From IMG/VR virus record IMGVR_UViG_3300031565_014856, positions 1 to 58,914 of that record: DNA of 58,914 nucleotides. One strand, given 5' to 3'. The DNA comes from a virus (taxonomy: Duplodnaviria > Caudoviricetes). The notes below the pieces were generated by a model that was not told where the DNA came from, did no database searches, and was given only the letters and a program-made list of their open reading frames with translations. Position numbers and translations under genes: made by a program. Below are positions 1,117 through 58,147 of the stretch, one piece after another. Each line of letters begins with the position of its first letter. The stretch's first letter is position 1.

Positions 1117-2289
1117 TTACTTTATTTTTAAAATGTGTTTACAAATTTCAATTTCTTTTTCATCCCCGAGGTGTTTACCATTGGTATCAGAGAGTTTAAT
1201 GGTTGGAGTCCAGTCGTCGCCCTCGGGCTTCGCCTCTGTCATCTTTATTACCATGTTTAATGGCTTTAATCCAACATCATTGGTGAAGTTTGTGCCAATG
1301 CCGAATGAACACATGATCTTTCCTCTGCAGTACTCTTTGATTTCGACTGCTTTTTCAGGATTTAAACTATCTGAGAAGATAATTACTTTCGATTTGGGAT
1401 TTATTCCCAATTTATTGTAATGTGCGATGGTTTTATCCACAAATTCTACGGGATCTCCACTATCCTGACGAATTCCATCATAAAGTTTGGCAAATTTCGT
1501 TTCAAATGACTTGAAGAAAACATCGGTCGTGAATGTATCTGATAGCGCAATACCAAGGCTCCCCCTATAAACTTCAGACCAGTGTTCCATTGCAAGTGAA
1601 TTGGCCATCTTGTAACCATACTTTGCGGCATGAAACATGAACCACTCATGGGCTTGGGTGCCCAGCGGTTTGATGTTATTTAGAAATGCAAGGTATACAT
1701 TAGATGTTCCTGTGAAGTTTTCATTTCTTCCATTGTTAGCAAACTGCGCAACAACCTCTGCATGGTTATCAAATGATTCTCTTCGGCGAGTTCCTAAGTC
1801 TCCATAATGTATACCATTCATACGGAAGAGTAACATCTTTTGGGCGTTGTTTTTTTCACGAGTCTGAGCATCCCATTTTTTACCGCCTGTCATCTTAAAA
1901 TACAATTCAGAAATGGCAGCCATTAAATTTGTTTCCCATAGGATTGTACGGTGCCAATAACCCTCTATTGAAACGTCAAGGTCAGAACCAGACTGAATGA
2001 TACCAACTTCAGAAGAATCAAATCTGTATCCGTATAAGAAATCAAGATACGTTGGTTCAAGGAAACCATTACACCTCGTATGGAGAAATATTTTTTCATG
2101 TTTAGTCATTGCGAGGGCTTCCATTTCCTTTACTTCTTGACGAAGCGCTTCTCCAAACCCCTCCGGAAACGCAGTTTTTCCCCTATTGATAAACTTATAG
2201 CGTACCTTCGCTCTCGGAAAGAGCTTGATCACTGCTTGTTGCATTGTTAATTTATAGAGGTCGAGATCTAAAATGCTTTTTATAATCAT
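1117..2289 (-). CDS. pncB: nicotinate phosphoribosyltransferase
   Basis: LDLDLYKLTMQQAV N-terminus, DLGTRRR, GTQAHEW (phospho-His), GIRQDSGDP, FGIGT. Confidence 0.93.
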   Translation of the reverse strand: MIIKSILDLDLYKLTMQQAVIKLFPRAKVRYKFINRGKTAFPEGFGEALRQEVKEMEALAMTKHEKIFLHTRCNGFLEPTYLDFLYGYRFDSSEVGIIQSGSDLDVSIEGYWHRTILWETNLMAAISELYFKMTGGKKWDAQTREKNNAQKMLLFRMNGIHYGDLGTRRRESFDNHAEVVAQFANNGRNENFTGTSNVYLAFLNNIKPLGTQAHEWFMFHAAKYGYKMANSLAMEHWSEVYRGSLGIALSDTFTTDVFFKSFETKFAKLYDGIRQDSGDPVEFVDKTIAHYNKLGINPKSKVIIFSDSLNPEKAVEIKEYCRGKIMCSFGIGTNFTNDVGLKPLNMVIKMTEAKPEGDDWTPTIKLSDTNGKHLGDEKEIEICKHILKIK

Positions 2290-2582
2290 GATTCAAATTC
2301 CTCCTTTAGTTTCAGATAAGTTTGGTATCTTCTTTTGCGACTGTCCTCTTTCATGAACGTTTCTCGCTTGGTTCTTTCTTCATGTTCTCCATCCGTCTCA
2401 AGGCGTGTTCTTTCAACGATTAAATAAAAATGAGGATCCCATGCTTCATTTTCGGATTGGTATCCTTCGTCATATCCAGCAGTGATGATGTCATCAGGCT
2501 GAAGTTCGATTTTTATGGAGCTTACTGGAATCGGATGATTTTCCTGTAAATGTAAGGCTTCATATTTTACTTCTTTTTTCAT
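2286..2582 (-). CDS. hypothetical protein
   Basis: tiled ORF with ATGA overlap. Confidence 0.6.
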   Translation of the reverse strand: MKKEVKYEALHLQENHPIPVSSIKIELQPDDIITAGYDEGYQSENEAWDPHFYLIVERTRLETDGEHEERTKRETFMKEDSRKRRYQTYLKLKEEFES

Positions 2583-2836
2583 TGTTGTTTGTTTTTATAA
2601 TGGAATCCCACGGGCCTGAGTGAATCGTTGTCCTGTAGAAGACTTTGTAATGGGTCTTTAAATGGTCCAACTGGTCCGTTGTGGATATCTCTAATGTCAA
2701 TTTCTTTTAGCTCTCCTATATCTGGTGGAGTTTCTCCAATCAGTCTCCAGAGAATGTCCATACCAGTATAATAATCATCATCTGTATGAATCGTTTTAAT
2801 AGCTAATCTTATCAATGCCTTCTCTTTTGCTGTCAT
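2579..2836 (-). CDS. hypothetical protein
   Basis: tiled ORF. Confidence 0.55.
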   Translation of the reverse strand: MTAKEKALIRLAIKTIHTDDDYYTGMDILWRLIGETPPDIGELKEIDIRDIHNGPVGPFKDPLQSLLQDNDSLRPVGFHYKNKQQ

Positions 2837-3066
2837 AATATTGGAGGATTTTTCTGCATTTCTCTGTAAATATAATCACTTATTTTAATTAAAGTCAATT
2901 TTCTTCTTATAAAATACCAAAAATTGTTCCAGTCTCTTGCTAAATTTAAGTCAATCTTTACTGGCGTGAAGCACTTCCACTTCTCCTTTTTTGGTACCTG
3001 AAACCTTACTTTAAATTGAATTTCAAGTACGTATCCATTTATGGTCATCCAATTTCTTGGTTTCAT
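2833..3066 (-). CDS. hypothetical protein
   Basis: tiled ORF. Confidence 0.5.
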   Translation of the reverse strand: MKPRNWMTINGYVLEIQFKVRFQVPKKEKWKCFTPVKIDLNLARDWNNFWYFIRRKLTLIKISDYIYREMQKNPPIL

Positions 3067-3512
3067 TTGAGTAAAGTAAGCGGATTATAAATAATGGATA
3101 ACAATAGTATGGTAAACACTCCATCAAGAAACAATATTAACCATACGTTAAAACTAAATTTTTCTCTCCTTCCAATCATCGGTTTTATTGCATACATTGA
3201 GGCTGTTGATAAACCTATCATTAAAAGTCCTATCCACCACCATGGAGTGAAAAATGTAAGAAGAACAAAAAGCAAATAGATGTATCCAATAAATTGCAAT
3301 ACCGGATTCTTTTGCATTAAGAAACTCCGATTATTTTTTTCGGTGCTTAAACTAAGTTTTAGTTTTTCGCCAGTATGTTTCTTTTTAAAATCTGCGATCT
3401 TTAAAGAAATAAGAACGTTATTCCAAATTATTTTTGGAATAATAACGATTTTTACGGCCTCCCATAATATGAAAGCCAATGCGATGTGTTGTACTACTTG
3501 GTCGAAATTCAT
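3063..3512 (-). CDS. hypothetical membrane protein
   Basis: several hydrophobic helices. Confidence 0.6.
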   Translation of the reverse strand: MNFDQVVQHIALAFILWEAVKIVIIPKIIWNNVLISLKIADFKKKHTGEKLKLSLSTEKNNRSFLMQKNPVLQFIGYIYLLFVLLTFFTPWWWIGLLMIGLSTASMYAIKPMIGRREKFSFNVWLILFLDGVFTILLLSIIYNPLTLLK

Positions 3513-3522
3513 GTTAATGTTG

Positions 3523-4455
3523 TTAAAAAATTAAACTTCCTTCGTCATCCCACTGGCAATATAGCTTTCCGTTCTCACGTAGGATTACATATTTTAATGA
3601 ATCTAAATTATCTTTGCTCATACAGTCATCGTCAACTGCTGTTGACATTCCATCAATTGAATAAACCATGGGTCCAAAGGGAAGTCTGTAAAGTGGTGTG
3701 CCTTCACCATTGTGATGATACCCGGTTTGAAATTCCTCATCTTTTTCTCCAGCGATATATTCGTTAATGCGCCTAAACACAGTTTCGTTACATGCATTTT
3801 CATCCACCCAAATGGATTCTGGGTTATCTTCTCCTCCTCCATATAATTTTCTGAAGGTAATTTGGTCTGCGCCCAATTCTTTGCATCGTATTAGGATGTC
3901 TTCAGGATACATTTTATCATAGACATTTGTCATATTAAGGGATAAACGAAGGTTAAACCCGCTGTCTTTGATGAATCCACAGAGCTCTTCCAGCTCTCGT
4001 CTTAAATTCAAAGGGGTTCCAATTAAATCCCAATTATTTGCAGAATCATTAATATCAGAAACTGATAGCGAAATGGTATTTACGCCTAATGATTTCAACA
4101 GTTCCACATTTGGGTAACGATCATCTGTTCGTATCGTAGAACCTGGAATAGATTTTTCACAATCCATCAACATGACACCCGTTGTTTGAAGTTCAACGTT
4201 TGGAAAGGGGTGTCCCTCTTTGTTCAGGGCATCCCATAATTGGTTCAAAAACCACTTATTTTGAAGGGCCTCTCCGGTGCCTGTGATGATAAGGGTGTTT
4301 ACGTTGTTGTTAGCTGCGTATTTAATTCTTTTGCGATATGAGATCATATCGAATCTGGTTTCATACGGGTTGTTGTGCATCCTCGATACACAGAATGGGC
4401 AGTTGTTTACACATCCTTTTGTGGGAATAACTACTGATATGCTTTGGATTTTCAT
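3523..4455 (-). CDS. radical SAM protein
   Basis: CxxxCxxC motif (CVNNCPFC) and TGTGE motif. Confidence 0.85.
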   Translation of the reverse strand: MKIQSISVVIPTKGCVNNCPFCVSRMHNNPYETRFDMISYRKRIKYAANNNVNTLIITGTGEALQNKWFLNQLWDALNKEGHPFPNVELQTTGVMLMDCEKSIPGSTIRTDDRYPNVELLKSLGVNTISLSVSDINDSANNWDLIGTPLNLRRELEELCGFIKDSGFNLRLSLNMTNVYDKMYPEDILIRCKELGADQITFRKLYGGGEDNPESIWVDENACNETVFRRINEYIAGEKDEEFQTGYHHNGEGTPLYRLPFGPMVYSIDGMSTAVDDDCMSKDNLDSLKYVILRENGKLYCQWDDEGSLIF

Positions 4456-4706
4456 TTTTTGAGTATAAAAACTTTGAATAATAAAAAGAACATAGATGCT
4501 AATAATATCGTTGTGAAAATCATTGCGTAAGCACCCACATAAAACTTCTCAAAAAGGTTGTATTTGTTAACAACATCGAGTGTCTCAAAGAGATTACCGT
4601 CCGCTAATTTAAAAAACATAACGGCGATGTATGTATCTGCGATCATCATAAACACCAAAAAGATGCTTAGAATGATTAAAGCTATTTTAATTAGATTATT
4701 TTTCAT
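4452..4706 (-). CDS. hypothetical membrane protein
   Basis: two TM helices; tiled. Confidence 0.55.
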   Translation of the reverse strand: MKNNLIKIALIILSIFLVFMMIADTYIAVMFFKLADGNLFETLDVVNKYNLFEKFYVGAYAMIFTTILLASMFFLLFKVFILKK

Positions 4707-5092
4707 GCTACCGCAACGTTAAGTTTGTTGTGAATGTCAATTACGGTCTCTTTCTCAATATGGAATCCTTCAGGAATCATCGCCTTGAGCTTCTCCTCGT
4801 CGGAGATAGAAATGATTTGCTTCCAATACTTAGGCATTTTCTTCATCAAAATTGCCATTTGCTTCTCTGACAACCACTTCCGATTGTTATACTGCTTAGC
4901 AAAGGATGAAAGGATCTCTCCGTCAACCCCAGTAAAACCTACACCGTTATATTCGGATGTGGTTTCATACTCTTGTTCGTCTGCGGTTTGGAATTCAAAA
5001 ATCTTGGTGAGTCCGTGGAGTGCCCAACGGGTGTCGTTTGCGAGTTTACCTCTTACGAATTCTTTGATCTGTTGTTTTGTTATTTTTGCCAT
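4703..5092 (-). CDS. hypothetical protein
   Basis: ORF directly downstream of a conserved promoter motif. Confidence 0.65.
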   Translation of the reverse strand: MAKITKQQIKEFVRGKLANDTRWALHGLTKIFEFQTADEQEYETTSEYNGVGFTGVDGEILSSFAKQYNNRKWLSEKQMAILMKKMPKYWKQIISISDEEKLKAMIPEGFHIEKETVIDIHNKLNVAVA

Positions 5093-5120
5093 TGTCTTAA
5101 AGTTTAATTACTTTTATGAT

Positions 5121-5160
5121 AGCTAATATAACAATAATACCCGAAATAAAAAAATTTTGG
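5121..5160 (-). promoter_or_regulatory. recurrent phage promoter (TTTTTnnnTCGG..N..TTATATT(T/A)G); representative copy
   Basis: Near-identical motif also at ~9222, 12094, 17734, 18311, 22010, 24214, 28334, 41544, 44742, 46343, 48127, 50592, 51481, 53405, 54212, 55206 (minus) and 55715 (plus); matches Bacteroidota -7 element TAnnTTTG. Confidence 0.8.
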
Positions 5161-5196
5161 TGAATTTTTATCACCTAAGGACTAAAATTTATCATT

Positions 5197-5676
5197 TTAT
5201 AGCTGTTGAGGACCATTTGGTGTCCCAAACATCAATTGTCCAGTAGCATCATCATAAAAAACCACACCATCGGCTACTTGAGGCGGATCGTCAAGATTTA
5301 GTTTTGGGGTTGGCGCCTTATCCTCTTTCATTAAATTCCTAATGATTTCCTTTTCTTTTTTGGTACGTTCAGAATTCTTCTTTTTGAGAATGTCCTCAAT
5401 TACTGCACCACCAGGACCACATATGTCAAAGTGTTCTATAAAATTTTCTATCATTGATAAAGTTTTTGGTCCGCAAGTTCCAGTTCCTGTCCAAACCATA
5501 CTAGTTCCATCCCAAGTTAATATGTGTCCCTCAAAAGGGTTTGTTTCAATATTTATGCTTAGTGTATCCCCATCTATAACACCACCTAATAGAACTTCAT
5601 TACATGGATTCGCTATAATGCTCCTGTCAGAATAGGCTTCCTGATAATCTACTGAGTATGTAAGTCCATCAGCCAT
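5197..5676 (-). CDS. hypothetical protein
   Basis: tiled ORF. Confidence 0.6.
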   Translation of the reverse strand: MADGLTYSVDYQEAYSDRSIIANPCNEVLLGGVIDGDTLSINIETNPFEGHILTWDGTSMVWTGTGTCGPKTLSMIENFIEHFDICGPGGAVIEDILKKKNSERTKKEKEIIRNLMKEDKAPTPKLNLDDPPQVADGVVFYDDATGQLMFGTPNGPQQL

Positions 5677-6163
5677 GTTGTCTCGTTATTTTAATTTTGG
5701 GTTTCTTCTTCTTTGATTTTGCGATAATTTTCTTAAGAAGTTTTTTATCAGTATTGCTGCGTTCAGAGTGAGGTTTATCAAGTATTCTTGTTAGTTTTGG
5801 AATGTCTCTTATAGGAACATCATATGCTTCAATGAATGCTTCAACGTGTCCTATTATTTCGTCATCCTCTTCGTCATCCTCTTCGACTTCGTTTATTCTT
5901 CTTCTTTGTACTGCTAATAATCTTTCTTGAAGTTCGTTCAATCGTTCTTGATGTGTGCGGGTTTGTTCTTCATCACGTCTATCTCGTTCTCGTCTGTGTC
6001 TGCCCCATATACCTGAATCCCATATACCATCACGATGTGCCTGTTCAGCAAGTTCCGATGCAGCTTCTGCAGCAGCTTCTACCTCTTTTTCATAATCACT
6101 TTGAAGACCTCCCCCAAAGTCTTCATATGATTTATCATACCATCCGTCTGTTATATCAGCCAT
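5669..6163 (-). CDS. hypothetical acidic/basic protein
   Basis: tiled ORF; shares IL(D/K)KxxSER(S/T) segment with 5197..5676. Confidence 0.6.
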   Translation of the reverse strand: MADITDGWYDKSYEDFGGGLQSDYEKEVEAAAEAASELAEQAHRDGIWDSGIWGRHRRERDRRDEEQTRTHQERLNELQERLLAVQRRRINEVEEDDEEDDEIIGHVEAFIEAYDVPIRDIPKLTRILDKPHSERSNTDKKLLKKIIAKSKKKKPKIKITRQHG

Positions 6164-6692
6164 CTTTTAATAATTTATCTAGGTGTTCCCACATTTCTTC
6201 AAATCTTCCATCACGCAAATTCTTTGAGAAAAATTCATGTTCATCACGGTACATGTTTATCATTGAAGATTTTTCGGTAACGGAAAATGTAACGTTAGCA
6301 ATTCTATCACATAGCTTGATGAAAGTACAGTGCTTGTATGCTTTTATACCATCATAATACGTTTTGTTAGCTCTTTCTTTTCGTGTCTTTCCCTTTTCGT
6401 TACAACACACATAAGAATATTCCGCAATTGTTTTGTTGGTTTCGTCTTTTACGTTATTGTAGGTTTCTCTTGCGTCTTCAATGATATCATGACACCAACA
6501 CCCGCCGATTACATCAGATCTATCGATCTCAGGTATTAGGTGAATGAACTCTATCGCTGTATCAACTGTCATCTGTAAGTGATACGCATAGGGATACAAA
6601 GCATTGTAGTGATGATTTACTTCTCTATGCCGTCTTATCGCATAATCTTTTGCTATCTCATCTACTGAGAGGAATTCTCTGTATTCTGGCAT
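6156..6692 (-). CDS. HD-domain protein, RelA/SpoT-hydrolase (small alarmone hydrolase)-like
   Basis: PYAYHL, HDIIED and IKLCDRIAN motifs. Confidence 0.8.
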   Translation of the reverse strand: MPEYREFLSVDEIAKDYAIRRHREVNHHYNALYPYAYHLQMTVDTAIEFIHLIPEIDRSDVIGGCWCHDIIEDARETYNNVKDETNKTIAEYSYVCCNEKGKTRKERANKTYYDGIKAYKHCTFIKLCDRIANVTFSVTEKSSMINMYRDEHEFFSKNLRDGRFEEMWEHLDKLLKDG

Positions 6693-6761
6693 TTTTTCTT
6701 ATTTTTATCTCTATAACCTTGCCATCCAAATTCTCGGATGCGTTCTTGCAATCCGTTCCTC

Positions 6762-6944
6762 TTAGGACGAGTTCTGTTTTTGCTTCTTTTTTCTCGGTGT
6801 TGTTGCTTTTCTGGCATTTATGTATCTTCTTTCGGTTGTTTGTATTTGATCATAATTAACGAATAAATTTCTGTCACCACACATTTCGCATTCTGGAGAT
6901 GCTTTACCCCAGTTTTGTAAGTATGGAATTTGAGGTGTAATCAT
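6762..6944 (-). CDS. hypothetical protein
   Basis: ATG at 6944 overlapping upstream stop; CEMC motif. Confidence 0.4.
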   Translation of the reverse strand: MITPQIPYLQNWGKASPECEMCGDRNLFVNYDQIQTTERRYINARKATTPRKKKQKQNSS

Positions 6945-7159
6945 TCTACACTGGGAACACCAACTCCATCTGTGTTCCCAAGATTCACTATCGCCCATCG
7001 ACTATCATTTACTATTCGGTCCATCACATTTATTCCAGACTCCATGCTTGCAACAGCATGGGCCATTATATATGGAACATAAATGTATCCACCATATTCC
7101 ATGGCCAAGGAATTTTCTTGACCAGTTTCCCAATGCCTTATGAATTCTTCTTTAATCAT
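6941..7159 (-). CDS. hypothetical protein
   Basis: tiled ORF. Confidence 0.5.
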   Translation of the reverse strand: MIKEEFIRHWETGQENSLAMEYGGYIYVPYIMAHAVASMESGINVMDRIVNDSRWAIVNLGNTDGVGVPSVE

Positions 7160-7227
7160 CGCAAAACATTGATTCTATTACTAAGAGATCTAATTGTCTC
7201 GTTTCCCAACGTCTTATAAATTCTTCT

Positions 7228-7875
7228 TTATTCATATAAATGAGAATAGAATTCTTCTACAACCACCCCAGAATCATCAAATTCCAAAAGTACATCATTA
7301 ACATCTTCAGCGATTGCTCGTGTTCCTTCAATGAATATTCTCGTTTCATACCCAAAATACGCGGCATCTTTTGCCGTATCTTTAACGCAGTAATCAAGAG
7401 CGAGCCCAACAATGTCCACAGCTCTAACTCCCTTTTCGATTAGGAATTCATGGAGCCCAGTATTTTCATGACCATCTCCAAACGCTCCATACGGGTGGCA
7501 GTGGCTTTCAATTCCTTTCTTGATGATATAAAATTCTCCGTTTATTAAACTAAAGTCAATATCATCATGTAACTCAGCCCCTTTTGTATTCTGTACACAA
7601 TGTATAGGCCATAGAACTTCAGGCTTCCCGTGTATCTCCATCTCTTCAAACGGCTTCTTCCCCGCGTGCGATGCCGCGAAATAGATATTATCCGGTTTGT
7701 GCCAATCTTTCGTAAAAATAACGAGGTCATATTTTGGTAGTAATTCATTTATCACTGGAACTATCTTATCTCCTTCTTTCACAGCTAACGCTCCGCCCAT
7801 CCCGTTATCGTAATCTTCTTTACTTGCGGGCATAAAATCATACTGTGCGTCAACCACTATCAGTGCTTTCTTCAT
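7228..7875 (-). CDS. pncA: nicotinamidase
   Basis: ALIVVDAQYDF, DWH, WPIHCVQ, GLALDYCV (catalytic Cys). Confidence 0.92.
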   Translation of the reverse strand: MKKALIVVDAQYDFMPASKEDYDNGMGGALAVKEGDKIVPVINELLPKYDLVIFTKDWHKPDNIYFAASHAGKKPFEEMEIHGKPEVLWPIHCVQNTKGAELHDDIDFSLINGEFYIIKKGIESHCHPYGAFGDGHENTGLHEFLIEKGVRAVDIVGLALDYCVKDTAKDAAYFGYETRIFIEGTRAIAEDVNDVLLEFDDSGVVVEEFYSHLYE

Positions 7876-7920
7876 TTTTGAATTTTTAGAGGTTCATACT
7901 ATTATAGTATTCATTTGTTC

Positions 7921-8223
7921 TTAGTTTTCATTATCAAACGTAAATTCTTCATTACAGTGCGGACACAACCACGTTTCTTTCCATGTGTATAATGGTTCCG
8001 GGGCAATGGCGTATTTGCTGATAATGTGAGTGTGGTGACCACTTACGTGTTCTATCTTTGGATAGTATTCAGGCGGTACGGGTAATTCAGTTTCTACGAT
8101 ATCATCGTGGCACAAATCAAACACCTGTTTTCCATTATCGTCTAACCGATAATACGTGCCATCAAATTCGGCTTCATCCCATCCGCATTGTGGGCAATTA
8201 TATTGCTCTAAGTTAAACTCCAT
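7921..8223 (-). CDS. hypothetical Zn-ribbon protein
   Basis: CPQC...CPHC; probable start at ATG 8223. Confidence 0.55.
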   Translation of the reverse strand: MEFNLEQYNCPQCGWDEAEFDGTYYRLDDNGKQVFDLCHDDIVETELPVPPEYYPKIEHVSGHHTHIISKYAIAPEPLYTWKETWLCPHCNEEFTFDNEN

Positions 8224-9037
8224 CAATTGCAGATTTTGGTATGTTAAAGGGGTTATTCCTTTTAAACTCAGTTCGATGGTATCTTTGAAGAACCGGATCA
8301 TCTAAATCGCCAATTCCCGATGCAAGGTGAGACTGTAATCTTAAATCGACGAGTTTGTATCCATCTCTTGAAGATCCCTCCCATGTTGGTAAAATTTGGT
8401 CAAGATCAGTCTTTGAAATTCCAAGACCATCAGTTGCCTGGCATTCAATACATTCTTTTAGGGCTTTTTTCTGGAAATCAAATTCTGATTCATTTTCCAT
8501 GATCCAATCTGCCATTTCATAAACCTCAGTTTTCCAGAGGTTCTGAATCATTCCATAATCCCCAACATCTCCATGCAACGTCCAAAAACCAAGAAGATAT
8601 TCCGTATAATTATCTGTTGATAAAACCATACCTTTATGAATTTGCGCCAAATCATAAAGATAAATCATCCGTAAACGAGCCTTAATGTTTCCCCTGCGAA
8701 TCTTCTCGTTGGGTTCTTCAACGTCCCATCCCTCTGGTCCGGTTACTCCCCATATGCTCGTAAAGGCTGATCCCAATTCATATACATCATCAAATGTATG
8801 GCAAAAAGCTTTTCCAACCAGTTCTCCTCGATCTACTTCATCAATTCCATTTCCAAGAGTGATGCTTCGCCCATGCAATTGGATTCCCAATTCGTCGCAT
8901 ACGGGTTTTGCTAATGCAGCACATAGCGTACTGTCAATCCCACCAGATATTCCCATTACAAGGGATTGAATTTTGTTTTTTTCAATGTAACTTTTTAATT
9001 CTGCCCTGATGTTTTGTGTTGCTTTTTCGTAGTTCAT
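8213..9037 (-). CDS. nadE: NH3-dependent NAD+ synthetase
   Basis: GISGGIDS, NIKARLRM, STDN, GFWTLHGD, KTEVY. Confidence 0.93.
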   Translation of the reverse strand: MNYEKATQNIRAELKSYIEKNKIQSLVMGISGGIDSTLCAALAKPVCDELGIQLHGRSITLGNGIDEVDRGELVGKAFCHTFDDVYELGSAFTSIWGVTGPEGWDVEEPNEKIRRGNIKARLRMIYLYDLAQIHKGMVLSTDNYTEYLLGFWTLHGDVGDYGMIQNLWKTEVYEMADWIMENESEFDFQKKALKECIECQATDGLGISKTDLDQILPTWEGSSRDGYKLVDLRLQSHLASGIGDLDDPVLQRYHRTEFKRNNPFNIPKSAIDGV

Positions 9038-14092: not shown

Positions 14093-14129
14093 AATTGCCT
14101 CCTTTCATTAATTAAATTTATACTAAAAT

Positions 14130-14166
14130 AAAAAAGCCCGAGTGACGTGTGTCTTCTCGGGCTTTT
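14130..14166 (-). terminator. terminator/attenuator hairpin in the TROVE gene leader
   Basis: AAAAGCCCGAG...CTCGGGCTTTTTT located between the motif RNAs and the TROVE start codon. Confidence 0.8.
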
Positions 14167-14205
14167 GTAATCCAAATAATCGTAATAAAATGGAATATAA
14201 AGTTA

Positions 14206-14293
14206 GTCGAGAAAATTGGTGAGAGTTTTTCTGTCTGGCTTTCGCCTGATCTTTCTTATGGTTGAAACGAAGTATCTCTTACCTTACTACAAC
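14206..14293 (-). ncRNA. Y-RNA-like motif RNA copy 1 (TROVE leader)
   Basis: GUUG-UAGUAA-GGUAAGAG-AUACUUCG...CUCUCACC-AAUUUUCU-CGAC; motif shared with four other loci. Confidence 0.75.
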
Positions 14294-14327
14294 AGTGCTT
14301 TTCAATATTTTAAAGAACAAAAATTTT

Positions 14328-14392
14328 GTTGAGAAAATTGAGCAGAGTATTTTTTCATTTTTCCTACGAAGTAACTCTATTCTTACTACAAC
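14328..14392 (-). ncRNA. Y-RNA-like motif RNA copy 2 (minimal)
   Basis: GUUG-UAGUAA-GAAUAGAG-UUACUUCG...CUCUGCUC-AAUUUUCU-CAAC. Confidence 0.75.
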
Positions 14393-14495
14393 TAAATTTT
14401 ATATTGGTAAATATATACCAAGTTTCGCTTCTGCGAAAATATTTTTTGTTAATTTTTTGTTAAGATTCAATTTATATATAGAATCCCATTTTTAC

Positions 14496-16002: not shown

Positions 16003-16019
16003 TCACATCCTTCTGGTCG

Positions 16020-16093
16020 CGATCCCAGCGGGACTCGAACCCGCGACGCTTGCTTTTAGAGAGCAACGCTCTGACCAACTGAGCTATGGGACC
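16020..16093 (-). tRNA. amber suppressor tRNA (anticodon CUA)
   Basis: Full cloverleaf: GGTCCCA/TGGGATC acceptor, anticodon arm TTGCT-CTCTAAA-AGCAA, T-loop TTCGAGT. Confidence 0.88.
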
Positions 16094-22571: not shown

Positions 22572-22789
22572 AGACGGGGGACGGATTCGAACCGCCGACC
22601 TCCAGGTTGTTGTACTTCCTCCTTACCTTCAAATCTCTTTTTTACAATTACCAGGGAGCGACCCCAGATCAAGCAAAATGACCTAAATGATGATTTATCA
22701 GAAGTATCGATACCCATACTTAAAGCTTAATGCATGCTCTTTAAGATGTCATCGATCCTGACGCTCTGTCCGGGCTGAGCTACCCCGCC
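22572..22789 (-). ncRNA. tRNA-like RNA whose anticodon loop is replaced by 150 nt
   Basis: intact acceptor GGCGGGG/CCCCGTC, D arm, anticodon stem TCAGG/CCTGG and T arm; loop spans 22607-22756. Confidence 0.75.
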
Positions 22790-22972
22790 ATTCGTATTTC
22801 AGAACTCCAGAACGGAGCACCGTGGAACCTTTCCTCACTTTCATAAATATCGGTCTACCACACATTTGGGTAACAACTCCCAATGCGAACTGTTTCGTCT
22901 GCCCAGGTTGCCTTAACGGCTGGCTTACTTATCAGTTCAGGCTATTAACAACACAACAAAGAACGTTAACTG

Positions 22973-23311: not shown

Positions 23312-23378
23312 TGACGTGGGAGTTGCACCCACTTCTCCTTGTGTATAGACAAGGTGACTTACCTAATAGTCTAAATCA
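23312..23378 (-). ncRNA. degenerate tRNA-like element
   Basis: D arm GACT/AGTC, stem CCTTG/CAAGG, T arm GTGGG-TGCAACT-CCCAC, only a 4-bp acceptor. Confidence 0.45.
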
Positions 23379-24056: not shown

Positions 24057-24261
24057 ATATCTCGTTCAACACACCAAGTATTCATTTTCATTCCAATGTT
24101 AAACCAAACGTCAACGTCGGTTTGAGTGTTGGCATTTTGAATCCTCTTGCAAATAAAATCGGCTATTTTTTGAAGAATCTTTGTTTTCATTATGTGTTGT
24201 TTTGTTAATCTGAGGCTAATATAACCATAATTACCGAAACGAGAAAATTTTTAATTAAAAA

Positions 24262-24379
24262 AGTAGAGAAAATTTAAGAGTGTATTGAGGATTTGAACCC
24301 CGTGTCCCGAAGGACGCCTGTTTTTCAGACAAGTGTGTATACCAATTTCACGATGAAACACTACTTAGTTACTACTACT
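24262..24379 (-). ncRNA. Y-RNA-like motif copy 3 replacing the acceptor stem of a type II tRNA body (anticodon GAA)
   Basis: AGUAG-UAGUAA-...UUUCAUCG + D arm + CUUGU-CUGAAAA-ACAGG + variable arm + T arm + CACUCUUA-AAUUUUCU-CUACU. Confidence 0.8.
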
Positions 24380-24383
24380 ATTG

Positions 24384-24468
24384 TGGAACCAAGAGGACTC
24401 GAACCTCCGACCTCTGGTATTTCACACCAGCGCTCTACGCGTATTGCTACCATCTGAGCTACGGTTCC
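24384..24468 (-). tRNA. atypical tRNA-Phe(GAA) with enlarged D-loop and G32
   Basis: D-loop contains GTA-GCAA-TAC hairpin; loop GTGAAAT. Confidence 0.75.
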
Positions 24469-24547
24469 ATAAAGACGAGGAAAACCCTAAAGTTTATTAC
24501 GATGAGAAGTCTGCCACCAAAAAGGCAGCCACAACAACCCGTCAGTG

Positions 24548-24620
24548 TGGGGAGAGGCAGAATCGAACTGCCGACACATGGATTTTCAGTCCATTGCTCT
24601 ACCAACTGAGCTACCTCCCC
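24548..24620 (-). tRNA. tRNA-Phe(GAA)
   Basis: canonical cloverleaf; loop CTGAAAA. Confidence 0.93.
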
Positions 24621-24624
24621 ATAG

Positions 24625-24704
24625 TGGGATGAGACGGAGTCGAACCATCACAGCCAAGGCGGGGGTTTTACAGACCCTTGGGCTCACCCATGCCCAGCCA
24701 TCCC
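24625..24704 (-). tRNA. tRNA-Tyr(GUA), divergent
   Basis: loop CTGTAAA; variable arm; D stem GGGC/GCCC. Confidence 0.8.
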
Positions 24705-27101: not shown

Positions 27102-27195
27102 CACTGTCACTCATCTCGACCAACGGTCACGGGAATCGAACCCGTACCTATACCCCTAATGGGTAGTGACTTGCCATTTGTCCATTCCGGCAGTG
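27102..27195 (-). ncRNA. tRNA-like element with defective acceptor stem (loop CATTAGG)
   Basis: good T arm ACGGG-TTCGATT-CCCGT and D arm; outer stem CACTG/CAGTG. Confidence 0.5.
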
Positions 27196-27204
27196 TTGAT
27201 TCAG

Positions 27205-27285
27205 TTACCCTGAGAGGAATCGAACCTCTGTCTCCGGGGCCAAAACCCGACGTGTTGTGCTTGCGCTCCTTTATACTACAGGGCA
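27205..27285 (-). tRNA. tRNA-Gln(UUG) with enlarged D-loop
   Basis: U1-A72; loop TTTTGGC; D-loop contains GC-GCAA-GC. Confidence 0.8.
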
Positions 27286-27368: not shown

Positions 27369-27421
27369 TGGTAAGAGGCTTTGCACCTCGGATGAGAGTC
27401 ACTTAATCACTCTTAAGTTTT

Positions 27422-27550
27422 TGGTGGGGAAGGTTGGAGTTGAACCAACTGACTTTAGTATTTCAAACTAACGTTTAACCGATGAAACTCTATGCGTTAC
27501 TATGAAGAAATTCAAGAAAATTGCGAGAGCATTTTTAAAACTTCTTCCCC
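27422..27550 (-). ncRNA. tRNA(GAA)-like RNA with Y-RNA-like motif copy 5 inserted in the D-loop, CCA encoded
   Basis: acceptor GGGGAAG/CTTCCCC-A-CCA; D-loop holds CUCUCGC-AAUUUUCU-UGAA[UUUC]UUCA-UAGUAA-CGCAUAGAG-UUUCAUCG; anticodon loop TTGAAAT. Confidence 0.8.
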
Positions 27551-27554
27551 ATTG

Positions 27555-27627
27555 TTGACCCTCCAGGGCTCGAACCCGGACTCTTGTGGACCAAAACCAC
27601 ACGTGTTACCAATTACACTAAGGGTCA
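27555..27627 (-). tRNA. tRNA-Gln(UUG)
   Basis: cloverleaf; loop TTTTGGT. Confidence 0.92.
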
Positions 27628-27666
27628 ATTTGCACGTCTTTCCGTGCTGTCAATCATTTCGATCCC

Positions 27667-27779
27667 AAATGGATGTTTACCGCTTACACTAATTGAACTT
27701 TAACGACAATGCTAATGATGCATTGTGCGGTTCAATGATGGATTCGAACCATCCTCCCATTATTTTGAGATGTCCATTC
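27667..27779 (-). ncRNA. circularly permuted tRNA-like RNA opened at the anticodon loop (YrlA-like topology)
   Basis: order: GAATGG, variable arm, T arm GATGG-TTCGAAT-CCATC, ATTGAAC, hairpin linker, GTTCAAT, D arm, CCATTT. Confidence 0.7.
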
Positions 27780-27781
27780 AG

Positions 27782-27854
27782 AGCCGGAGACAGGAATCGA
27801 ACCCGCGACATCTTCATTACAAGTGAAGCGCTCTACCTACTGAGCTACTCCGGC
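27782..27854 (-). tRNA. tRNA-Thr(UGU)
   Basis: cloverleaf; loop CTTGTAA. Confidence 0.92.
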
Positions 27855-27861
27855 ATTACAA

Positions 27862-27996
27862 ACTGAGAAAATTGACTAGAGATATTTTATCGTGCTACCA
27901 ATTACACTAATCCCGCATAAACATGGAGCGGGACCCAGGATTCGAACCTGGACTAATCGTTCCCAAAACGAAGTAACTCTTGGTCGTTACTACAGT
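27862..27996 (-). ncRNA. Y-RNA-like motif copy 4 enclosing a circularly permuted tRNA-Pro-like module
   Basis: ACUG-UAGUAA-...UUACUUCG, loop UUUGGGA, T arm, GUCCCGC-U-CCA-linker-GCGGGAU, D arm, CUCUAGUC-AAUUUUCU-CAGU. Confidence 0.82.
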
Positions 27997-28002
27997 CTAT
28001 AG

Positions 28003-28073
28003 AGGTCCCTCCCAGATTCGAACTGGGGTCTCTGGTTTTGCAGACCAGCGCCTAACCGCTCGGCTAAGGGACC
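28003..28073 (-). tRNA. tRNA-Cys(GCA)
   Basis: cloverleaf; loop CTGCAAA; U73. Confidence 0.92.
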
Positions 28074-28717: not shown

Positions 28718-29683
28718 TTATATATTATCGACACATTGTATGGTATTGTATAATTTTTGTACATAATCTTCATCCTGAACGTTTGCCGTTAACCTTTCTG
28801 GGTTTGTGATAATTTGCGTATCTCTATCATTTATCCAAGGATTTAATATCCCGGTCCATCTTCCACCTTCCATAGATTTATATTCAAAAACATCATCATG
28901 ATTTACAATATCTTTAAATCCCAATAACATTTGAATTACATAATTGTGTTTTGGACAAATACGTAAGGCTTCCGTTTGTATTTTTCTCTTTCGTTTTGAA
29001 TCCGGTAAGAGATATAATTGCCACGCGTGTTGGTGCAGTGCGTAAATAGGATATAACCTACGTGCCCACCTTTTAATTATATCTGGTTTCATGTTATTAT
29101 TTATCTTCACAAAATCCTCTTGATGGCTTTCTTCTTCAAAAGGAACTAACTTATAAATAATATCATTCCACCAACGACTTACTTTCGTTACTGGTAAACT
29201 AACTGCCAAATATAACCACGTATAAAATTTAGATCCACAAATAGCTCTCATCCAGCACCATAATTCTGGAGTGAATCTAGCAAATTTACTTATCCTAAAT
29301 CTAAGGTGAGTTACAAATTCTTTTATAAATTCATCGGAATAACCGGCATATTTATACGCTAGAACAGTGTATAATGTATGATCTCTTGATAGGCCAATTT
29401 CATCCGGGAAGCGATGTGGATACCTATATCCTTGATAATAATATTTACCAAATAGTAAGCGTTTTATTCCTTTACGCTCAACTTTTTCCCAACACGATTC
29501 AATCCCTTCAAGAAACCTTTCATCGCCATAACAATAATATGCTATGAAATTTCTTCCTATTGCGTCTCCTTTTCCGTTTTCGCCGTTAGGTTTCCAACCG
29601 GGATTTTGTCCCAACATCATTTTGTATTCCTGATCCACAAACCACTGTGTTTCAGTTGCTTCCCAATTAAATTCTGAGGCCAT
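28718..29683 (-). CDS. hypothetical protein
   Basis: 321-aa ORF; no recognised motif. Confidence 0.7.
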   Translation of the reverse strand: MASEFNWEATETQWFVDQEYKMMLGQNPGWKPNGENGKGDAIGRNFIAYYCYGDERFLEGIESCWEKVERKGIKRLLFGKYYYQGYRYPHRFPDEIGLSRDHTLYTVLAYKYAGYSDEFIKEFVTHLRFRISKFARFTPELWCWMRAICGSKFYTWLYLAVSLPVTKVSRWWNDIIYKLVPFEEESHQEDFVKINNNMKPDIIKRWARRLYPIYALHQHAWQLYLLPDSKRKRKIQTEALRICPKHNYVIQMLLGFKDIVNHDDVFEYKSMEGGRWTGILNPWINDRDTQIITNPERLTANVQDEDYVQKLYNTIQCVDNI

Positions 29684-37437: not shown

Positions 37438-38007
37438 TTATCTCTTCGCCCAGGGCAACCGTGTAATAAAATCATAATAGGATCGAATTATTTGATCGTG
37501 ACCCCACGCCCAATCGTAATGATGCAAATCTTCAATGTGTACCCATTTCATTTTTCCTACTTCTCCTTCAATCTCGTTATTATCAGCGTGTAATACAGGA
37601 AACCACCTTTGTTTAGTGTATAAACCATATCTCAGTGATACATTTTGTTTATTGTTATCGGTGGGATTTGTTTGAACGTGCCATGGTTGATCGATGTTAA
37701 CGCTATAAACCTGAATAGCGTCCTCAATCATATTGGATATATTGATGCCAACTTCTTCCCAGGTTTCCCGTATGAGCGCATCTGTACCTGATTCATCATA
37801 ATCAAGATATCCAGCGACGTTATTCCATAATCCGATATTATCTGCCGCATTTTTACCTCGTTCAGAAACAAGTGCGTATGGTCCTGGACTATCAAAATCT
37901 ATAACATCTATAAGTATTACACCATTGACAGCAACGCTTCTGCTTTCCCAGATTATTCTTCCGTCTTTAACTTTGTGCCATTTATTTGGCGTATTATTGA
38001 ATGTCAT
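37438..38007 (-). CDS. NUDIX hydrolase
   Basis: GYLDYDESGTDALIRETWEEVGI Nudix box. Confidence 0.85.
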   Translation of the reverse strand: MTFNNTPNKWHKVKDGRIIWESRSVAVNGVILIDVIDFDSPGPYALVSERGKNAADNIGLWNNVAGYLDYDESGTDALIRETWEEVGINISNMIEDAIQVYSVNIDQPWHVQTNPTDNNKQNVSLRYGLYTKQRWFPVLHADNNEIEGEVGKMKWVHIEDLHHYDWAWGHDQIIRSYYDFITRLPWAKR

Positions 38008-39302
38008 ACGTCTCTCCCTTCATTATAAATTGCTTTTACTGTTGGAAACCTTAAACTTATTTCTCCGTGTTGATTTACGGTTTCTTCAAAATATTGAACC
38101 GTTATTTCCTTGCCCACAATTCTGTCAGGGTATTTGTAGAAATACTGGCGTTGTTCAATTGAAAATCCAGATCCAACCGAAACTGGGTATCCTTTATGTT
38201 CTATCCAGACACTCCTGACCATATCCTCGGTGACCTCCAGGCCGTCAACTATGATCCTAAATGGACCAATATCAATGTCCTGTACAATGTACTCGGCGTC
38301 AAAAAACTGCTTACATTTAAGAAGATTGTTTGATCTCTTTCCCTCATATGGAGCGTCCTTACGTATCATAATTCCTTCCCATCCATTCTTTTGGGCCATT
38401 GTATTTAGTTCGGTCAAGTGTTCACCTGACTCAACTTTCCATTGTTCAACGTGGCTAAGAACATCTCCATAATAATTATCCATCATAAACCTGATAAACT
38501 TTTGTCTTTCTGATGAAATTTGAGAGCTGTACTTCTTTTGAAAATGATCAAGATCTAACAAATCAAATATCTTAAACCGGGGATTTTGAATGGTGTGATC
38601 TTTTTTATTGTATTCCTTTAAGATAGCCTGGAAATCTTCGTCTCCGTTTTCGTTTACTATACATAATTCACCATCAAGCACAGTATCTATTAAATTTAAA
38701 GGTAACAATGCTTCTTTTACTTTATCAAGTGTAAGAAATTCATTACCGTTTCGAGAGTATGCTTTGATGCTTCCGTCGTGATCGATAATTACAATACATC
38801 GAACTCCATCAAGTTTCCTACTAGCATACCAAGTATCCTTTTTAAAATCCACCTTCTTCACCATCTTCTCATCATACTTATTTGCCAACGCGACATCAAA
38901 TGTAGGAATAAGATCAGGGAAAACTTTGTTTATGATTTTCTCAGACACCCTCGTTTTAAGGTTACGATCAAATATATTAAGAATGATTTCTTTATATTCA
39001 ATATTATCTCTGATAAATGCATTGACATCGGCAATAGCTTCGTGCCCCGTTATTCTTCTATTTCCAAGATCGTCCAATAAATCTAGAATATCTTCATGAG
39101 ATTGACGTGATACCAAATCAGATCTTTTGATTATATTCTTTGGGGTTACATAATATTGTACGAATGGGTTATGAGTAGCTTTCAAAATGGCCTTTATGAA
39201 TTCTGTATCATATTCAGGCTTTGAAAGTGTAGCAGTTTTTTCGAGTGTTGAATTCGAAACATTGAGCTCATCAATGAGCTGTTTGAGAAGATTAAATTCC
39301 AT
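38004..39302 (-). CDS. ATP-dependent DNA ligase
   Basis: KLDGVR, LDGE, EGIMIR, LLKCK, VGSGFS, SLRFP. Confidence 0.93.
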   Translation of the reverse strand: MEFNLLKQLIDELNVSNSTLEKTATLSKPEYDTEFIKAILKATHNPFVQYYVTPKNIIKRSDLVSRQSHEDILDLLDDLGNRRITGHEAIADVNAFIRDNIEYKEIILNIFDRNLKTRVSEKIINKVFPDLIPTFDVALANKYDEKMVKKVDFKKDTWYASRKLDGVRCIVIIDHDGSIKAYSRNGNEFLTLDKVKEALLPLNLIDTVLDGELCIVNENGDEDFQAILKEYNKKDHTIQNPRFKIFDLLDLDHFQKKYSSQISSERQKFIRFMMDNYYGDVLSHVEQWKVESGEHLTELNTMAQKNGWEGIMIRKDAPYEGKRSNNLLKCKQFFDAEYIVQDIDIGPFRIIVDGLEVTEDMVRSVWIEHKGYPVSVGSGFSIEQRQYFYKYPDRIVGKEITVQYFEETVNQHGEISLRFPTVKAIYNEGRDV

Positions 39303-40398
39303 ATCTTTGTTTTCTTATTTTTAGTAACAGATCATCTAAAAGTTCTTGATCTATGTCTTTTGGTAAATCACATTCATCATAAACCTTATCGAGTTCTTCG
39401 ATCATCGCCTCTGCTTCTTTAACGAGTTTGTCATATTCATATTCTCCTCGTCTTATCTCCATAAGAATTTTTATTTCTTCATCGGGTCTGCGAACGTTGA
39501 TAAATTTGATCTTTGGGATTTCCAATGCAACATTCAAAAGACGAAATGTATGCATCATATTTTTGGAATCGTAATTTTTTCCGTGAGACTTATTCATCTT
39601 AACACGATCAGGGTTTCTTTCTTTCAGCCACGTTTGATATTCCTTATATCTTTTGCAATGTGTTGAGTACGCGTCCTTATTAAATATAAGGTATCCAATA
39701 ACCATTAATCCTTTGGGAATGGAAGTTAACTGTACATCATTTGCTGTAACAGGATCAGAAACTATGCCGCTTCCTTCGTGTCTACGGTGAAGTTGATACA
39801 TTGCATAAACATCATGTGCGTGGTCAACTTTTGCTAAACCAAAATCTCTTTGATCTATAGTATCTAACGTTCCAGATTGGTAGTACCTGTTAAAGTATTC
39901 ATTAAGAGTGATTGAACCTCCTTCTTGAAGAACATAACAGAAGTCCAATACATTCTTACGAGTCATCTGTGATTCTTCCCAGTTCATCTTCTTGTTATAC
40001 CCTTTGGCCTTTTTGATTTGATCGATAGCATATCCAGCAAAGGAGTAACGACACGTTTTCGTTAGAAATTTTGATGCGTGATAAGAAATGGATCCCCATT
40101 CTGTAGAATCGTGTTGAACACAATCTTCCGGGGCAAAAAGCAGTTCAAGAACTGTTGGGTTGTTTGTGCGAACAAGAGCAAGAAATCTACTAAGTTCGTA
40201 GTAGACGATATCATTTAAGTCGTCTGCAACCTGCTCAACATACCCATGTTTGAGTATGTCTTCCAACGGTTGCACAAAAACTCCTCGCAAATCTGTGTCG
40301 GATGTCGGTAACGATGTCCCATATGCATGGGATCCCATTATTGCTTCGAAGATAATTAAATCTTCGTCTTTTAAATATTGTATCGTGTAGTTTTTCAT
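39292..40398 (-). CDS. Pol-beta superfamily nucleotidyltransferase
   Basis: GSHAYGTSLPTSDTDLRG, NPTVLELL, YDSKNMMHTFRL. Confidence 0.8.
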   Translation of the reverse strand: MKNYTIQYLKDEDLIIFEAIMGSHAYGTSLPTSDTDLRGVFVQPLEDILKHGYVEQVADDLNDIVYYELSRFLALVRTNNPTVLELLFAPEDCVQHDSTEWGSISYHASKFLTKTCRYSFAGYAIDQIKKAKGYNKKMNWEESQMTRKNVLDFCYVLQEGGSITLNEYFNRYYQSGTLDTIDQRDFGLAKVDHAHDVYAMYQLHRRHEGSGIVSDPVTANDVQLTSIPKGLMVIGYLIFNKDAYSTHCKRYKEYQTWLKERNPDRVKMNKSHGKNYDSKNMMHTFRLLNVALEIPKIKFINVRRPDEEIKILMEIRRGEYEYDKLVKEAEAMIEELDKVYDECDLPKDIDQELLDDLLLKIRKQRYGI

Positions 40399-57945: not shown

Positions 57946-58147
57946 TATGATGTGGGAATGGGAAAAGGAACAGGAAAAGATTGTGCCAAAACCCATAGAT
58001 GAAAATTGCAAAGAGGGACAACGTATCTTTTGGATTCAATTTGGAAATGATACAAGATATGAAGGGACCCTTAAAAAATGGAAAAATGGCGGGCAATTTG
58101 CCGATATTGAAATGGATGATGGTAGCATAATAGAATTTGAATTTTAA
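57932..58147 (+). CDS. hypothetical protein
   Basis: tiled ORF. Confidence 0.5.
   Translation: MSSYSMMWEWEKEQEKIVPKPIDENCKEGQRIFWIQFGNDTRYEGTLKKWKNGGQFADIEMDDGSIIEFEF

Follow-up and report, generated by a model that had tools for sequence, protein, structure and literature searches.

A 129-nucleotide (nt) RNA encoded on the minus strand of a genome fragment from a large soil phage has the full cloverleaf of a transfer RNA (tRNA), including an encoded CCA end, and carries within its D loop a 42-nt structured cassette that recurs, with its strands in the opposite order, in two small RNAs lying directly upstream of a gene for a TROVE/Ro-like protein. The fragment, IMG/VR record IMGVR_UViG_3300031565_014856 (58.9 kb; 58,914 nt; estimated completeness approximately 15 %), is referred to over its whole length as the window, and the RNA encoded at 27422-27550 as the candidate. 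The candidate is very probably a real, selected structured RNA. Its function was deduced from gene neighbourhood and architecture only, and on that basis the reading towards which we lean is that of a tRNA-derived Y RNA, processed like a tRNA and docking the phage Ro protein.

Structure of the candidate RNA

All four tRNA stems of the candidate are at canonical positions (Table 1), the variable loop is 5 nt long, and the anticodon stem of 5 bp carries a 7-nt loop with U33. The 5' end lies 1 nt past the CAA tail of the neighbouring tRNA-Gln, which is ordinary tRNA spacing. An earlier description made from the letters of the DNA (the sequence-only reading) had proposed a complete tRNA with a GAA anticodon and an encoded CCA, and this was borne out in that every pair of the acceptor stem, A73, the CCA, and the anticodon and T arms could be read. 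The D stem is formed by GUUU, which follows the acceptor stem and two A residues, and AAAC, the four nt directly before G26. Across the homologues described below, all four pairs form in five of the seven sequences and two of the four in L144 and L143, the variants being GUUU/AAAC in the window and L132/L134 and the compensatory GUUC/GAAU in L137/L139. Because nt 10-13 pair with the nt before G26 across the homologues, the D stem occupies the canonical position and the cassette is an insert in the D loop. The D loop measures 61 nt in the window copy and 58-63 nt across the family, so that the insert had been placed in the correct loop by the sequence-only reading, which had put its length too low at about 55 nt.

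ARAGORN made no call at the candidate, as had been foreseen for a tRNA finder. The Rfam tRNA model (RF00005) aligned to it locally, over positions 9-63 only (33.6 bits against a gathering score of 29), and took as the D stem a second GUUU (27488-27485) that is unique to the window copy. The impression given by this alignment, of an insert between the acceptor stem and the D arm, was overturned by the homologue comparison of the 10-13 pairing, and a single-sequence minimum free energy fold in which the linker was paired differently was dropped for the covariation-supported family structure. By these model tests the candidate is not a standard tRNA, though its stems are canonically placed.

Read from 5' to 3', the D loop consists of an A-rich linker, CUCU, 2-3 paired nt (helix 2), AAUUUUCU, a capped helix of 3-4 bp, UAGUAAC, the return strands, U[AU]C[AU]UCG and G. 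Helix 3 of the cassette pairs CUCU (27529-27526) with AGAG (27491-27488), helix 2 pairs GC (27524-27523) with GC (27495-27494), and an internal loop separates helix 2 from the capped outer helix. The claims that the motif stands in reversed order within the D loop, AAUUUUCU preceding UAGUAAC, and that the closing stem is capped by UUUC both held, the first with its placement supported by the 10-13/22-25 pairing of the D stem. The 3' flank probably supplies G18G19 at 27480-27479, and the cassette occupies the solvent-exposed stretch of the D loop 5' of G18G19. In two soil DNA runs containing the window, a variant contig approximately fourfold deeper covers 27452-27553, and in it the cap-helix partners 27512 and 27505 change together.

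All of the 15 cassette elements compared in this work share the loop strands UAGU(A/G)A and (A/G)(A/G)UUUUCU, a helix of the CUCU/AGAG type and U[AU]C[AU]UCG, and the candidate has every one of these parts, at 27488-27529 and 27477-27487, with the strand order reversed and the outer helix capped. Taken singly, the loop strands are not enriched in the window (16 occurrences of the AAUUUUCU 8-mer against 11.9 expected, and 7 of the UAGUAAC 7-mer against 5.3). On the minus strand the two occur within about 130 nt of each other at 24242-24374, 27496-27522 and 27866-27992; judged from this co-occurrence, and from recurrence in other contigs with covarying stems, the arrangement exceeds what chance would be expected to give.

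Table 1 Features of the candidate RNA, related cassette RNAs and the Ro-like gene in the window
Feature	Position	Strand	Details
Whole RNA, 129 nt, tRNA-shaped with D-loop cassette	27422..27550	-	Model R1, 147 bits
Acceptor 5' strand, GGGGAAG	27544..27550	-	Pairs with 27426-27432; 7/7 pairs, 4/7 covary in family
Acceptor 3' strand CUUCCCC (27432-27426), A73 (27425), encoded CCA (27424-27422)	27422..27432	-	
D stem 5' strand, GUUU, nt 10-13	27538..27541	-	Pairs 4/4 with AAAC 27473-27476
Cassette, 42 nt, three helices	27488..27529	-	CUCU/AGAG invariant in 7/7 sequences
Loop strand AAUUUUCU	27515..27522	-	Corresponds to 3' strand in stand-alone RNAs
Cap hairpin UGAA-UUUC-UUCA	27503..27514	-	Closes what stand-alone RNAs have as terminal helix
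Loop strand UAGUAAC	27496..27502	-	Corresponds to 5' strand in stand-alone RNAs; invariant in 7/7 sequences
3' flank UUUCAUCGGUU	27477..27487	-	U[AU]C[AU]UCG plus a second G
Anticodon arm UUAGU-UUGAAAU-ACUAA	27455..27471	-	Anticodon GAA 27462-27464; 3/5 pairs covary
T arm GUUGG-UUCAACU-CCAAC	27433..27449	-	
Stand-alone cassette RNAs A (14328-14392) and B (14206-14293)	14206..14392	-	Directly upstream of Ro gene
Element C	24263..24378	-	Cassette strands at ends run into acceptor stem of tRNA-Phe-like body (loop CUGAAAA, long variable arm)
Element D	27862..27996	-	Cassette strands at two ends, enclosing permuted tRNA-like body
TROVE/Ro-like protein, 558 aa	12416..14092	-	Pfam TROVE 32.1 bits, cut-off 23

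Homologues and covariation

Homologues of the D-loop form were obtained by scanning contig collections with exact patterns built from the cassette. True homologues accounted for two of the three matches among viral contigs, 7 of the 13 among metagenome contigs, and three of the six among contigs of genomes and metagenome-assembled genomes (MAGs), these last being small contigs assigned to an Elusimicrobia MAG, from which no conclusion about a host is drawn; the remaining matches lacked tRNA context and are due to chance. With the window copy included, the family comprises seven distinct sequences of five types. A stricter pattern gave nothing beyond L132 and L134, and the 119 stretches matching CAATTTTCTN{8,20}TAGTAAC were discarded as chance because none has AGAG, CUCU and T-loop context together. 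Among 50,697 GenBank phage records no homologue of the candidate was found, the only matches being of 26-30 nt in the T arm and acceptor (E at least 0.1), and BLAST of the candidate against the records of L004, L009, L010 and L003 gave 14-nt matches only.

A covariance model (R1) built from five of the family sequences gave scores of 77-147 bits for the family members, and ordinary tRNAs did not exceed 46.6 bits. In the alignment fitted to R1, 94.4 % of 180 cells pair, compared with 44-51 % after displacement of the 3' partners by 1-3 columns. Compensatory changes were counted in 13 of 27 pairs (acceptor stem 4, cap helix 4, anticodon stem 3, T stem 1, helix 2 1), counts that do not represent independent events since the four sequences with acceptor GGGGAAG are related, and the covariation score was reached by none of 500 shuffles. 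The cap helix covaries in all four of its pairs (UGAA/UUCA, CAU/GUG, UAG/CUA). From this alignment, which is itself fitted to the R1 structure, RNAalifold recovered the acceptor, anticodon and T stems together with helix 3 and the cap. Invariant columns cluster in the cassette (CUCU, A-UUUUCU, UAGUAAC, AGAG and U.C.UCG), which by sequence comparison appears as the most conserved part of the RNA. Lack of conservation of the insert had been named by the sequence-only reading among the grounds for refutation; the insert is kept in five types, and the cap helix and every tRNA stem show compensatory changes.

The same pattern bears on the possibility that the candidate is a non-functional chimera that arose when a Y-like RNA gene and a tRNA gene recombined within the repeat-rich array. 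Such an origin would suit the presence of several degenerate tRNA-like sequences in the array (Rfam 22-28.5 bits) and one low-depth contig joint between similar cassettes, from 27490 to 27961 (side 22, depth 6.6), a joint that was set aside as probably artefactual, arising from repeats or from a different organism. Against it, the five types conserve the arrangement, every helix shows compensatory changes and the cassette nucleotides are invariant, which makes a chance product of recombination highly improbable.

The anticodon loop differs among the types, being UUGAAAU in the window, CUUGAAAU in L144, UCGUAAU (GUA, with C33) in L137/L139, and CUCAUAA and UUCAUAA (CAU) in L132/L134 and L143. 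Four types keep a standard T loop, UUCAA(C/A)U, and also the GG after UCG; U33, the D-loop GG and the T-loop UC have been lost in L137/L139. The joint loss of GG and the T-loop UC fits an elbow contact between G18G19 and the T loop that decayed in one lineage, and these losses would argue against charging or decoding as the conserved function. Since the anticodon, U33, GG and UC vary among relatives, the conserved part is the cassette with the acceptor and CCA, and not the decoding elements. The Levitt pair fits as G15-C48 in L132 and as A15-U48 in L137/L139, and does not fit in the window copy. The CCA is encoded in five of the six complete family sequences (L134 has CAA), compared with 7 of the 70 ordinary tRNAs in the same arrays. 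For L132/L134, ARAGORN calls only the 3' 71-73 nt, as tRNA-Met.

These data were weighed against the alternative of a decoding tRNA-Phe(GAA) with a tolerated large D loop, in which the insert would serve the tRNA itself for instance through stability, escape from host nucleases that target tRNAs, or recognition by a phage enzyme. The window copy has much that such a tRNA would need (cloverleaf, ACCA, U33, GAA, a G18G19-like GG and a standard T loop), its insert occupies an exposed and variable portion of the D loop, and its position in the array has tRNA-like spacing. However, a canonical tRNA-Phe(GAA) is already present at 24547-24620 (72 bits), the relatives with the same acceptor, L137/L139, have GUA and C33 and are without the D-loop GG and T-loop UC, other relatives have CAU, and A occupies position 8. 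A decoding tRNA is accordingly rated as rather improbable, and what has been conserved is probably a role other than ribosomal decoding.

Cassette RNAs beside the Ro gene and elsewhere

In elements A to D of the window the cassette parts run in the opposite strand order to that of the candidate, and paired 5' and 3' ends replace the capped helix. RNAs A and B, which are followed by a terminator-like hairpin, lie 114-300 nt upstream of the Ro gene on the same strand, within the approximately 4 kb typical of YrlA-type RNAs; the minus-strand order downstream of the tRNA array is APS kinase, these two small non-coding elements and the TROVE/Ro-like gene. Viral contigs contained eight loci with Ro homologues (50-67 % identity), and in six of them Ro is immediately preceded, on its own strand, by a tandem pair of cassette RNAs whose helices covary (for example GAC/GUC, GGU/ACC, GAGAG/CUCUC and CAGGA/UCCUG). 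The two remaining loci are L005, which ends 381 nt upstream, and L010, which is divergent but retains UACUUCG. The window Ro-like protein, searched against the PDB with a profile made from seven homologues, matched 9l5y/9kop (E 1e-25) and Xenopus Ro60 (1yvp, E 0.0015), and its DxSGS (MIDAS-like) motif is invariant across the homologue alignment.

Passages of PMC4201824 describe bacterial Y RNAs as same-strand neighbours of rsr, at distances of up to 4 kb. Because the stand-alone cassette RNAs upstream of Ro mirror this placement, the cassette is taken as a putative Ro-binding module, and Ro would be its probable partner. Alternatively, the cassette might bind an exoribonuclease, a phage RNA ligase, RlaP or another phage protein, the proximity to Ro reflecting co-regulation only. 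Its dissimilarity to the YrlA and metazoan Ro-binding motifs would agree with this, as would the scatter of cassette RNAs far from Ro (C, D and the candidate in the window; others in L134 and L144; one about 127 kb away in LR745206.1), whereas the paired cassette RNAs upstream of Ro in the window and in six of the eight loci match the layout of bacterial Y RNAs given in passages of PMC4201824. A partner other than Ro is considered fairly unlikely.

Element C, with an Rfam tRNA score of 22.1 bits at 24279-24351, shows the cassette attached to a tRNA body in a third manner. The body of element D consists of a Pro-like anticodon hairpin, a T arm, an acceptor stem closed by an 11-nt loop, and a D arm, and the cassette leaves it at the 26/27 junction, between the complete D arm (GUGU/GCAC) and the anticodon stem. 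The sequence-only reading had described the candidate as a circular permutation of element D with the same three-dimensional arrangement. The two RNAs do share the cassette strands, the AGAG/CUCU helix, the A-rich 5' linker, the 3' U[AU]C[AU]UCG within the UUACUUCG flank and tRNA-like T, D and anticodon hairpins, and piecewise alignment of their cassettes and flanks gave scores of 53 and 34.5, where shuffled sequences averaged 31.9 and 20.0. They differ in that the cassette strands of element D are the ends of the RNA and its acceptor stem is closed by a loop, and in the sites of attachment; with the cassette at the 26/27 junction in D and in the D loop 5' of G18G19 in the candidate, opening and closing the chain cannot interconvert them, and the permutation holds only approximately.

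The 635-kb uncultured phage LR745206.1 has a D-type element about 127 kb from its Ro, which is 33 % identical to that of the window. The best R1 match in this genome (41.1 bits) was rejected as a homologue, being a different composite tRNA-like sequence without the cassette.

Several further elements were observed. A contig of a related genome in run X6 joins tRNA-Cys directly to tRNA-Thr and skips 144 nt of element D (27857-28002; side 47, depth 5.6), so that element D is present or absent among relatives. Standard-order cassette RNAs also occur in the arrays of contigs with the D-loop type, at 1633-1768 and 4037-4142 of L134 (minus strand), 7385-7547 of L144 (minus strand), 1193-1262 of L137, and 401-470 and 1166 to the end of L139, and some of these array RNAs are long enough for tRNA-like bodies. 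At 1501-1639 of L163 (LR745206.1 342653-342791) lies a 139-nt composite tRNA-like sequence without the cassette, in which an additional Phe-like anticodon hairpin and further hairpins, enclosed by the acceptor stem, come before a normal D arm, and a stand-alone cassette RNA is found approximately 160 nt downstream of it, at about 1800-1880 of L163.

Comparison with known RNA families

The candidate resembles a canonical tRNA (RF00005) in its four stems, A73 and CCA, 5-nt variable loop and location in a tRNA array, and differs from it in the 61-nt D loop with a structured hairpin (compared with approximately 7-11 nt), in A8, and in an anticodon that varies among homologues. Rfam scans gave only tRNA-related and noise matches, with no ribozyme or intron at E ≤ 10. 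Transfer-messenger RNA (tmRNA) is unlike the candidate in two respects, having no anticodon arm and carrying an extra domain made up of an mRNA-like reading frame and pseudoknots; the Rfam tmRNA models gave noise in the candidate region (12.2 and 5.8 bits). Both RNAs join an acceptor/T domain with CCA to an extra functional domain, and tmRNA is discussed in passages of PMC4201824.

With YrlA-type RNAs the candidate shares a putative Ro-binding stem and a tRNA-like domain (T arm, D features and a 7-bp acceptor), and the phage resembles YrlA-type systems in encoding a Ro orthologue that Y-like RNAs adjoin on the same strand. In Mycobacterium smegmatis the closed acceptor stem of YrlA is cut by RNase P and the RNA gains CCA in vivo while bound to Rsr, according to passages of PMC4201824, and the processed YrlA is like the candidate in its free acceptor end with CCA. 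Unlike YrlA, the candidate is a complete single-chain cloverleaf with an anticodon arm and an encoded CCA, lies inside a tRNA array, and has a module of different sequence that is placed within the D loop with its distal helix capped, where the YrlA module replaces the anticodon stem. The candidate is not a member of the Rfam YrlA family; the sole weak YrlA match in the window (22.3 bits) overlaps ordinary tRNAs at 24596-24650. In the literature, no Y-RNA module inside a tRNA D loop was found described, and the supplementary tables of Chen 2014, covering 22 phages, might bear on the point.

Proposed function

The candidate is predicted from its sequence to be transcribed within the phage tRNA array, and given its location there and its tRNA-like spacing, RNase P and 3' trimming should free a 129-nt molecule ending in the encoded ACCA. 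The released RNA would adopt a cloverleaf fold, the cassette protruding where the D loop is exposed, and the cassette would dock the phage Ro in the manner proposed for the Ro-adjacent small RNAs. The RNA would thereby bridge Ro and any factor able to recognise a tRNA that has an anticodon loop and whose CCA end is free, the candidate partners being tRNA processing and repair enzymes (the Rnl1-like and Rnl2-like ligases and RlaP of the window) or translation factors. As another possibility, the stable tRNA fold and CCA end might shield the Ro-bound RNA from exonucleases, a protection that has been proposed for the RNase P-cleaved, CCA-tailed YrlA of M. smegmatis. By analogy, the candidate would in effect be a single-chain relative of that cleaved YrlA which keeps an anticodon arm.

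A number of observations weigh against the reading as a tRNA-derived Y RNA. Position 8 of the candidate is A and not U. The Rfam YrlA model (RF02553, gathering score 69 bits) gave no match at E ≤ 10 in 27400-28010 or 14100-14480, and the YrlA motif GNCGAAN0-1G is absent from 14 of the 15 cassette elements, namely from all seven of the D-loop family and from seven of the eight stand-alone or chimeric RNAs, the single match being in an internal hairpin. The candidate is on the same strand as Ro but 13.3 kb from it (27422 against 14092), beyond the 4 kb typical of YrlA. The family sample is small (seven sequences, the four with GGGGAAG being related). No D-loop-type member was found in G001-G003, the Ro-containing relatives, all of which are fragments; the 59.8-kb record of L132, also a fragment, has a D-loop member and no Ro gene was found in it, as was the case in the fragmentary L134 record. 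The RNA run X18 yielded contigs over 27552-27627 and 27781-27855 only (tRNA-Gln- and tRNA-Thr-like, less than 99 % likeness), which are uninformative on expression of the candidate.

Excision of the insert in the manner of an intron was also considered; it would free a small hairpin RNA, and the tRNA pieces left behind would be rejoined, with the phage RNA ligases as possible agents. Archaea have functional small RNAs inside tRNA introns, and the window encodes both Rnl1-like and Rnl2-like ligases. We know of no bacterial or phage endonuclease for a D-loop site, however, the boundary does not resemble a bulge-helix-bulge, the Rfam scans were without a ribozyme or intron match, and the cassette flanks (the A-rich linker and UCGG) are conserved within one structure, which leaves excision a very improbable explanation.

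Within the reading as a tRNA-derived Y RNA, charging of the candidate in vivo is doubtful. It is unlikely that the RNA is a chargeable tRNA and a Y RNA at once, held by Ro through the cassette while it presents a specific anticodon loop and a CCA end, possibly in aminoacyl form; if this were true, the set of Phe-, Pro-, Met- and Tyr-like chimeras, in their different topologies, would couple Ro to tRNA surveillance, and the chimeras could lure or sense the anticodon nucleases of the host and pass damaged tRNAs on to the phage repair enzymes Rnl1 and Rnl2.

That bacterial Y RNAs imitate tRNA is established, and M. smegmatis YrlA has been the sole hint of a free CCA-tailed acceptor end. The candidate extends this theme and is real, conserved and unusual; its D-loop family is a natural, conserved RNA that combines every tRNA arm, an encoded CCA and an anticodon loop with the module of Ro-adjacent RNAs, and it shows that the D loop of a tRNA can accommodate a structured domain of 42 nt. 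As a single chain, the candidate is an easily expressed substrate for direct tests, and it opens the questions of whether a Ro-bound RNA can be charged, which tRNA-binding proteins are tethered to Ro, and how Ro relates to phage tRNA arrays and RNA repair. Chimeric RNAs of this kind, a whole class situated within large-phage tRNA arrays, are overlooked by tRNA finders and Rfam.

Genomic setting

Nearly all genes of the window are on the minus strand, and the tRNA array spans approximately 16.0-28.1 kb with 18 tRNAs called by ARAGORN. Other proteins encoded in the window include RNA ligases of the Rnl1-like and Rnl2-like types, ClpP, a DNA ligase, NAD-salvage enzymes and a nucleotidyltransferase of the RlaP family, a repertoire that is typical of very large phages. 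Passages of Iyer et al. 2021 (PMC7824862) describe TROVE proteins beside RNA-repair ligases in some jumbo phages. The sole plus-strand block of the window (55748-58652) contains genes for two RNA ligases, one of the T4 Rnl1 family and one matching Pfam RNA_ligase, and for a dual-specificity phosphatase-like protein, and together with RlaP and an ATP-dependent ligase at 38004-40398 (minus strand) it forms an RNA-repair gene set. An NAD-related cluster at 1117-9037 (minus strand) consists of NAPRTase, an isochorismatase-family protein, NAD synthase and a radical SAM protein. The open reading frame at 28718-29683, a neighbour of the candidate, gave no relatives in a search of viral contigs.

Within the array, degenerate tRNA-like sequences on the minus strand at 27121-27191, 27205-27275, 24392-24459 and 23316-23373 score slightly below the Rfam tRNA threshold (23-28.5 bits), and the one at 27205-27275 is also conserved in L137. 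Between tRNA-Thr(UGU) and tRNA-Gln, at 27628-27780 (minus strand), lies a permuted tRNA-like sequence without the cassette and without a call by tRNA finders or Rfam, its parts being ordered as T arm (GAUGG-UUCGAAU-CCAUC), acceptor 3' strand, long hairpin, acceptor 5' strand, D arm and anticodon-like hairpin. Apparent tRNA halves at approximately 22577-22790 (minus strand), with the sequences GGCGGGGUAGCUCAG... and ...GGUUCGAAUCCGUCCCCCGUC and a gap of about 150 nt between them, have no ARAGORN or Rfam call and may represent an interrupted or intron-bearing tRNA gene. A tRNA with a CUA anticodon (amber suppressor; labelled Pyl by ARAGORN) at 16019-16093 (minus strand) is kept in the relatives L003 (7584-7656) and L008 (1842-1913), and its conservation hints at reassignment or suppression of TAG in this group of phages.

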